Below, piece after piece: positions 343 to 406 of a DNA stretch of 6,032 nucleotides. This DNA comes from Escherichia phage ECO95 1-6-1: sequence record OR845271.1. One strand, written 5' to 3'. A model generated the notes under the pieces. The model ran no database searches, had not been told where the DNA came from, and was given only the letters and a program-made list of their open reading frames with translations. Position numbers and translations under genes: made by a program. Position 1 is the first letter of the stretch, and every line of letters starts with the position of its first letter.

Positions 343-345
343 AAA

Positions 346-365
346 TACTGTGTTTTTATACAGTA
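346..365. promoter_or_regulatory. LexA (SOS) box TACTGTGTTTTTATACAGTA
   Basis: Seen directly: 20-bp palindrome fitting CTGT-N8-ACAG with TA flanks, 17 of 20 matches to the ideal TACTGTATATATATACAGTA. It overlaps the -10 of the promoter for gene 64..342. Confidence 0.7.
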
Positions 366-389
366 TAAATTAAAGCAAATGTTGGTCAA
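362..389 (-). promoter_or_regulatory. Sigma70-like promoter: -35 TTGACC (389..384), 16-nt spacer, -10 TATACT (367..362)
   Basis: Minus-strand hexamers read from the sequence, in the 64-nt gap between the stop of 407..1120 and the start of 64..342. The LexA box overlaps the -10 and the predicted start site. Confidence 0.5.
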
Positions 390-406
390 TTTTGAAGGGT
401 GAAATA

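Follow-up and report, generated by a model that had tools for sequence, protein, structure and literature searches.

Escherichia phage ECO95 1-6-1 (OR845271.1) carries, ahead of a small gene of its early-left operon, a palindrome that closely resembles the operator of the host repressor LexA, which raises the question whether the gene responds directly to DNA damage, and what a product under such control might do. The LexA-repressed genes documented on mobile elements act on phage repressors, as antirepressors, or on RecA filaments, as DinI does, and an earlier reading of this DNA made from its letters (the sequence-only reading) had named both kinds as candidates. We analysed the whole stretch of 6,032 bp, from here on the window, and compared the small gene and its surroundings with homologous loci. 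Accessory genes that LexA represses have been described before from prophages and plasmids, and the regulatory logic set out here is standard; the protein family that the gene encodes, widespread and strictly linked to LexA sites, is an uncharacterised member of this class. Our literature searches found no paper on the predicted LexA site or on the small-protein family.

The window and its genes

The window is 100% identical to positions 725-6756 of Salmonella phage S.Kent 1-2-1 (OR850878) and resembles the SE1-type P22-like phages of the genus Lederbergvirus. Nearly all of its genes lie on the minus strand and make up the early-left (PL) operon (Table 1), and the RNA thermoregulator match at the cIII homologue confirms the lambdoid layout of this operon. 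The small gene had been described as the last gene of the operon; it is the last in the window, but further ORFs lie beyond it and it is not the last of the operon region.

Three other features of the window were observed. The ORF at 4251-4910 (minus strand) contains a 27-bp tandem repeat at 4459-4559 (3.7 copies, 94% matches) that codes for nine-residue units, GNRSAATNT or GDWSAATNT, within the C-terminal half of the encoded DUF7666 protein, and this region could be length-variable. A 167-residue ORF at 5090-5593 lies on the plus strand, opposite to the early-left genes around it, has CxxC pairs near its C-terminus with a weak zinc-ribbon match, and may be a further inserted accessory gene. 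The 58-residue ORF at 1394-1570 (minus strand) has a DnaJ-type CxxCxGxG zinc-finger motif, with a Pfam score of 26 bits that is under the cut-off of 32.7.

Table 1. Features of the window, and tandem LexA boxes at P2-like loci (coordinates of each locus or record).
Feature	Position	Strand	Sequence	Basis or remark
LexA operator (SOS box)	346..365		TACTGTGTTTTTATACAGTA; in gene orientation TACTGTATAAAAACACAGTA	sequence, matrix score
-10 hexamer	362..367	-	TATACT	promoter scan; overlapped by the LexA box
Alternative -10	365..360	-	TACTGT	
-35 hexamer	384..389	-	TTGACC	promoter scan; 16-nt spacer to the -10
Ribosome-binding site	335..339	-	GGTGG	4 nt 5' of ATG 330
CDS of the 88-residue protein, PHROG 2100	64..330	-		ORF list, PHROG match, starts of homologues
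Longer ORF	64..342	-		92 residues; in-frame upstream ATG probably unused
Acidic C-terminal tail	64..93	-	VDDIDNFKLQ	pLDDT <50 at residues 80-88
Mosaic junction, upstream edge of cassette	406..422			matches of other phages to the window
237-residue protein	407-1120			PL operon; stop at 407, upstream neighbour of the small gene
DUF4014 protein	1124-1342			PL operon
Abc2	2280-2573			PL operon
Rad52-like recombinase	2904-3611			PL operon
cIII homologue	3911-4051	-		ORF, 46 residues
Lambda cIII thermoregulator RNA	4006-4064	-		Rfam RF01804, 81 bits; overlaps start of cIII homologue
Tandem LexA boxes, L071	2427-2461			
Tandem LexA boxes, L078	2400-2434			
Tandem LexA boxes, L081	2397-2431			
Tandem LexA boxes, L092	3400-3434			
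Tandem LexA boxes, L098	record 31754-31788			

A LexA operator over a sigma-70 promoter

In the Enterobacterales the LexA operator is a 20-bp palindrome, TACTG(TA)5CAGTA, with an invariant CTG-N10-CAG. The site TACTGTGTTTTTATACAGTA fits the pattern TACTGT-N8-ACAGTA exactly, which chance would produce 0.01 times per window even if one mismatch were tolerated, and in the orientation of the gene (TACTGTATAAAAACACAGTA) it agrees with the consensus at 17 of 20 positions, the two arms being perfect. The CTG-N10-CAG core alone is uninformative, since it occurs twice in the window against 1.08 expected occurrences. For scoring we used a symmetrised weight matrix made from 29 E. coli LexA sites. The site scored 23.1 bits and the second-best site of the window 8.6 bits, while the entries for recA, sulA and umuDC scored 22.1, 21.2 and 26.8 bits with the same matrix. 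The matrix also recovered, as positive controls, the annotated LexA site of the phage 186 promoter p95 (25.7 bits) and the box beside Gifsy-2 dinI (23.6 bits), which has been documented by Lemire et al. (PMC3121763). The score is thus within the range of known strong sites and above the recA and sulA entries, and the description of the site as a near-perfect SOS box was well founded.

It is very improbable that the palindrome arose by chance, or that it serves a regulator other than LexA and is not bound by LexA. The site is a predicted operator, known from its sequence, and this leaves some room for such an explanation; in 300 shuffled windows, however, the maximum score had a mean of 7.8 and a top value of 19.6 bits and none reached 23.1, which together with the expectation of 0.01 per window rules out a chance palindrome at this position, and the arms specific to LexA are kept at loci where the protein is down to 39% identical.

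The promoter scan agrees with the layout proposed from the letters, in which the box lies over the -10 of a promoter with a good -35. The two hexamers, with their 16-nt spacer, match the sigma-70 consensus at 10 of 12 positions, the operator spans the -10 and the expected transcription start, and the promoter sits, as had been noted, in a short gap, the 64 bp from the stop of the upstream gene to the small gene.

The small gene and its product

The earlier assignment of a 92-residue product, with its start at ATG 342, had to be revised. It is more likely that the gene starts at ATG 330 and encodes 88 residues, because a GGTGG ribosome-binding site precedes this codon, with purine-rich GGTGG, GGGTG or GGAGG at the equivalent position of the homologous loci, because 55 aligned homologues have an N-terminus MGxK in common, and because SE1 and SSU5 are annotated with 88 residues. 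ATG 342 lies about 13 nt from the transcription start and has no comparable ribosome-binding site ahead of it. Between pairs of homologues there are 0.15-0.40 non-synonymous against 0.74-1.0 synonymous differences per site, the latter being saturated, which indicates purifying selection on the small gene.

The product had been called unrecognised, and this still stands, as profile searches give just PHROG 2100 (E = 3e-38), a family of unknown function. Searches of Pfam (E <= 0.01), NCBIfam and PADLOC with the small protein gave no match, and neither did a profile search of PDB sequences with the family. Among 1.84 billion representative proteins the profile found 109 matches, all of them small stand-alone proteins of 31-128 residues, with no domain fusion among them. 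The invariant residues are grouped in two motifs, VFFQR and YGGGYWLG (GG-WLG). AlphaFold2, with an alignment of 55 sequences, gave a model with a mean pLDDT of 82.5 in which four beta-strands and a helix at residues 58-79 are followed by a disordered tail; the predicted fold was matched to no known fold. The tail has a recognisable pattern in the family, namely an acidic run, D/N/Q, a hydrophobic residue, any residue, L, and then F/T or another residue, with L87 kept in at least 90% of the members. The commonest tail of the family is DFTLT and that of the window is NFKLQ, and in a distant subgroup, with proteins of 101-106 residues, the chain ends in ELPF.

Linkage of operator and gene across mobile elements

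Homologues of the gene were found in P22-like Salmonella phages, the phage-plasmid SSU5, a Serratia temperate phage, Cronobacter phages and P2-like phages. A family member is also present in 446 plasmid records (209 from Klebsiella), and most of these plasmids are non-mobilisable and about 110 kb, which is the size of SSU5 phage-plasmids. We gathered 83 loci and compared their 60 distinct upstream regions. In 54 of the 60 a box of more than 20 bits ends 14-18 nt 5' of the ATG and overlaps the -10, with TTGAC[CT] at the -35 position. In a footprint set of 20 representative upstream regions, chosen for a mutual identity below 85%, neither arm (ACTGT, ACAGT) varies (2.0 bits) and TTGAC[CT] is kept at the -35 distance in 18; the promoter spacer and the upstream flank reach just about 0.1-0.5 bits.

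The six regions that lack an adjacent box belong to P2/186-like prophages, and at these loci a strong box, often one of two overlapping tandem boxes, is found 220-600 bp upstream, before the first gene of the operon that includes the family member. In one further arrangement of this kind the order of genes is gpA, a Tum-like ORF of 62 residues, DinI, the family member (X) and AIPR; in the 186-like prophage L095 it is gpA, Tum (146 residues), Orf97 (243 residues) and X, and the box there has the same sequence as the phage 186 box. An operon box upstream of the family member is likewise seen in the cultured phage Cartapus. Two further observations concern the P2/186-like loci. The P2-like prophages have paired, overlapping LexA boxes with an offset of 15 bp and a common CAGTG / CACTG arm (Table 1), and these tandem boxes precede the operon that holds the Tum-like ORF, DinI and X. 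In addition, a GC-rich hairpin and a conserved leader, GTTGARCAACGAGCNAYGCGAGGCGTTAG, occur about 30-60 nt before the start codon (3001/4001) in L071, L078, L081, L092, L095 and L067, and may be a partial terminator combined with translational or RNA control, comparable to t95a of phage 186; this hairpin and leader are absent from the window.

The linkage extends to plasmids. A 55-kb conjugative plasmid (MOBP/MPF_T) carries the gene with a box of 26.4 bits placed 18 nt before the ATG, and an IncF plasmid carries a copy that is 39% identical, with a box of 25.9 bits. The sole copy found to be box-less is an N-terminally truncated remnant on a Franconibacter chromosome. In this remnant (L096 / L097 4001-4303, Franconibacter pulveris) the N-terminus has been replaced, and it adjoins a higB-higA pair; in Serratia phage BZS1 (L003) the second ORF downstream of the family copy is a HigB-like gene. 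In the complete genome of SE1 (42 kb) the box of the gene is the sole site above 12 bits, and in that of SSU5 (103 kb) the box of the operon is the sole site above 14 bits.

Since the unit recurs in phages, phage-plasmids and plasmids, it is likely to be a real damage-induced accessory gene. That the layout of box, promoter and gene is kept across unrelated elements while the flanks diverge strongly supports the proposal, already made in the sequence-only reading, that LexA controls the small gene directly and independently of the phage repressor. The comparative case for LexA regulation is about as strong as sequence evidence allows: the predicted operator and promoter, the coding gene and the linkage between box and gene are firm at this level, as is the mobility of the unit as a module, and from them we infer binding of LexA in vivo.

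A modular cassette at the distal end of the early-left operon

The matches of other phages to the window break close to the promoter. Some phages match the window over 1-415 or 1-422 alone, and g341c, epsilon15 and epsilon34 match it solely from 406 or 425 on, which places a mosaic junction at the upstream edge of the promoter. On the other side, the gene is followed by terminator-like hairpins, both in L085 (the locus of the window's phage), where they fall just beyond the left edge of the window, and in L001; one example, at L085 610..595, is CCTCGCACTCGCGGGG followed by ATTTTTTT. With a promoter, an operator, a ribosome-binding site, a gene and a terminator of its own, the unit has the classic layout of a "moron", and it assorts independently of its flanks and has been seen in four kinds of element. 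The best explanation of window positions 64-405 and the downstream hairpins is therefore a LexA-repressed moron at the distal end of the early-left operon.

The genes that follow could suggest that the LexA promoter mainly serves to transcribe xis and int upon damage, the small ORF being incidental. In SE1 the gene is followed by a terminator-like hairpin, then by an ORF of 116 residues at the place of xis and then by the integrase, so that the next genes are of the kind that this explanation calls for. The hairpins, however, separate the small gene from the next ORF (in the window's phage, hairpins are followed by an ORF of 125 residues), the linkage between box and gene persists in phage-plasmids, P2-like phages and plasmids that have no xis or int after it, and the small ORF itself is under purifying selection. 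A promoter serving xis and int was rejected because of the terminators and of the linkage where these genes are missing, and we regard it as a very unlikely explanation. In SSU5, four ORFs follow the gene with no terminator in between, and the SOS unit may there be a five-gene operon. The genes after the small gene in SSU5 (L002 / L089, record 88043-90381) are DUF1380, DUF5983 and two more ORFs; DUF1380 and DUF5983 are typical of plasmid leading regions.

The product as a candidate antirepressor

The sequence-only reading had compared the product to antirepressors of the Tum and Gifsy type that trigger induction. According to this explanation, the gene encodes a LexA-controlled antirepressor like 186 Tum, Gifsy GfoA/GftA or N15 AntC, which would induce its own or co-resident prophages. 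The gene is small, phage-borne and LexA-repressed, as documented antirepressors are, and the antirepressors of the Gifsy phages act across phages (PMC3121763). SSU5 also speaks for it: the promoter is its sole LexA site in 103 kb, and the genes annotated there as a repressor and a repressor-like protein code, by their coordinates, for just 148 and 90 residues, as would be expected if the operon bore the induction signal of SSU5.

The repressors of the phages that carry the gene nevertheless argue against an antirepressor. The repressor of the window's phage (L085 8295-9008, 237 residues) and the C2 repressor of SE1 (216 residues) both consist of HTH_3 and Peptidase_S24, which means that canonical RecA-dependent induction by self-cleavage is available to both phages; a non-cleavable cognate repressor, of the kind that goes with antirepressors, is found in neither. 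SE1 has in addition a P22-type Arc/Mnt/Ant region, and thus an Ant system already. The two repressors are 22% identical and the two small proteins 100% identical, which is against an antirepressor, as this would be expected to track its repressor. The core motif is strongly kept across elements with unrelated immunity regions, and both gene and box are found on a conjugative plasmid. In P2/186-like prophages a Tum homologue comes first and the small gene follows it within one operon (at one P2-like locus a Tum-like ORF, BLASTP E = 3e-6, lies ahead of it), so that the small gene is there an extra component rather than the antirepressor. Finally, the protein has no detectable similarity to the proteins in question: hhalign gave probabilities of 0.4% against Tum, 0.3% against Gifsy-2 GftA and 0.2% against Gifsy-2 DinI, with no match to Pfam PF06183 at E <= 0.01. 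A role as antirepressor is therefore unlikely, and the cassette is probably not the induction switch of the phage.

The comparison with known systems points the same way. The p95 operon of phage 186 (tum, orf97) is alike in having, by its annotation, a LexA box over a sigma-70 -10 and small genes that are independent of the phage repressor, and in 186/P2-like prophages such as L095 a family member is physically within that operon. In contrast, the gene of the window has a private LexA promoter within a P22-like early-left operon, its product is homologous to neither Tum nor Orf97, and the window's phage needs no antirepressor because its repressor has the S24 self-cleavage domain. The dinI-antirepressor-irsA operons of Gifsy-1, -2 and -3 (PMC3121763) resemble the cassette as LexA-repressed accessory operons of Salmonella prophages that lie apart from the immunity region. 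Terminator-like hairpins are a further common trait, one preceding the promoter in Gifsy and others following the gene in the window cassette. The systems differ in that the Gifsy repressors are non-cleavable while those considered here have a self-cleavage domain, and in the absence of similarity to GftA or DinI. N15 AntC, an antirepressor that a phage-plasmid encodes under LexA control (cited in PMC11652158), is similar in being a LexA-regulated small gene on a phage-plasmid, the cassette being the sole LexA target in SSU5; unlike it, the small-protein family is also present on a conjugative plasmid, where no phage repressor exists, and N15 was not among the tblastn matches of the small protein at E <= 1e-3.

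Possible functions directed at the host

Of the readings that are left once the antirepressor is disfavoured, an SOS modulator directed at the host is the best. Conservation of the protein core across unrelated immunity systems, strict coupling to LexA and the company of DinI point to a conserved host target in the SOS response, and the tail, which is disordered and yet conserved in sequence, is a clue to a host-directed function. We consider it somewhat more probable than an even chance that the unit is a self-contained LexA-repressed cassette with a product that would act on a conserved component of the host. In an undamaged lysogen, host LexA would occupy the operator and cover the -10 and the start of a strong sigma-70 promoter, and the gene is expected to be silent as long as LexA is bound there. 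After damage, activated RecA (RecA*) would promote self-cleavage of LexA and the promoter would fire without cleavage of the phage repressor, probably at lower levels of damage. The transcript would have a leader of about 25 nt, from which the 88-residue protein is made, and during full lytic growth the gene would also be reached by readthrough from PL. The product, predicted to form a small globular domain with four beta-strands and a helix ahead of a disordered acidic C-terminal peptide, would bind a conserved component of host DNA-damage response, replication or repair, as the DinI homologues of mobile elements do, the C-terminal peptide probably being a docking motif.

The sequence-only reading had also mentioned DinI-like modulators of the host SOS response. 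By analogy this is possible: DinI (PF06183) is likewise a protein of about 80-90 residues, acidic, LexA-controlled and spread by prophages, and often in the same operon. No homology supports the likeness, the small protein having no Pfam match and an hhalign probability below 1%; it is also predicted to have four strands and one helix, and it co-occurs with DinI instead of replacing it.

The tail offers a lead, in the form of a likeness to two peptides that bind central replication proteins. In the C-terminal tip of SSB, DDDIPF, acidic residues lead up to [IL]-P-F as the last three residues of the chain, and the ELPF of the distant subgroup resembles this tip, but NFKLQ of the window and the commonest tail DFTLT do not have the P-F. 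The beta-clamp motif is QL[S/D]LF or QxxLF, with positions 1, 4 and 5 critical (PMC12309361), and the tails of some members (QLPLF, QIPLF, QMQLF and NLSLF) are similar to it. In contrast, NFKLQ fits at position 4 (L) alone, and DFTLT has neither the Q of the first position nor the F of the last. The idea that the window protein itself mimics a clamp-binding motif or an SSB tail was therefore downgraded, as its tail fails the defining positions of both. A bolder version of the host-directed reading, in which the family is a new class of effector and a third component of SOS operons beside Tum and DinI, its tail docking on the beta clamp or on the pocket for the SSB tail and thereby redirecting polymerases or recombination, is speculative, and we would give it a small chance.

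A different kind of function is suggested by the neighbours in other elements. Orf97 lies in the Tum operon of phage 186 and reportedly blocks infection by 186 when expressed from a plasmid, and the small gene could have a similar damage-triggered exclusion, defence or toxic function that protects or sacrifices the damaged lysogen. The gene is found beside Orf97 in the distal part of a p95-type SOS operon, directly after Orf97 in L095, P2-like copies border AIPR, TIR-like and DUF4065-type genes (the latter two by ORF reading), and the remnant copy adjoins higBA. The protein has, however, no PADLOC match and no membrane or nuclease features, and its linkage is to the LexA operon and not to the neighbouring cargo, which varies. 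Homology to Orf97 on the grounds of equal position was rejected, as L095 encodes the small gene plus Orf97 and not one instead of the other, and hhalign against 186 Orf97 (243 residues) gave a probability of 0.25%. We thus find an exclusion or toxic function improbable, to about the same degree as an antirepressor.

Implications for temperate phages and phage-plasmids

The P22-like and P2/186-like carriers of the cassette are common types of Salmonella prophage. As the sole direct LexA target in SE1 and SSU5, the cassette marks what would be the earliest response of these elements to damage that is independent of the phage repressor, and the identity of the target would reveal what a mobile element changes in the damaged host beyond its own repression. 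In SSU5-type phage-plasmids, the target of the small protein could explain how damage is sensed. The family is widespread and tightly defined, and this makes it a good target for experiments.
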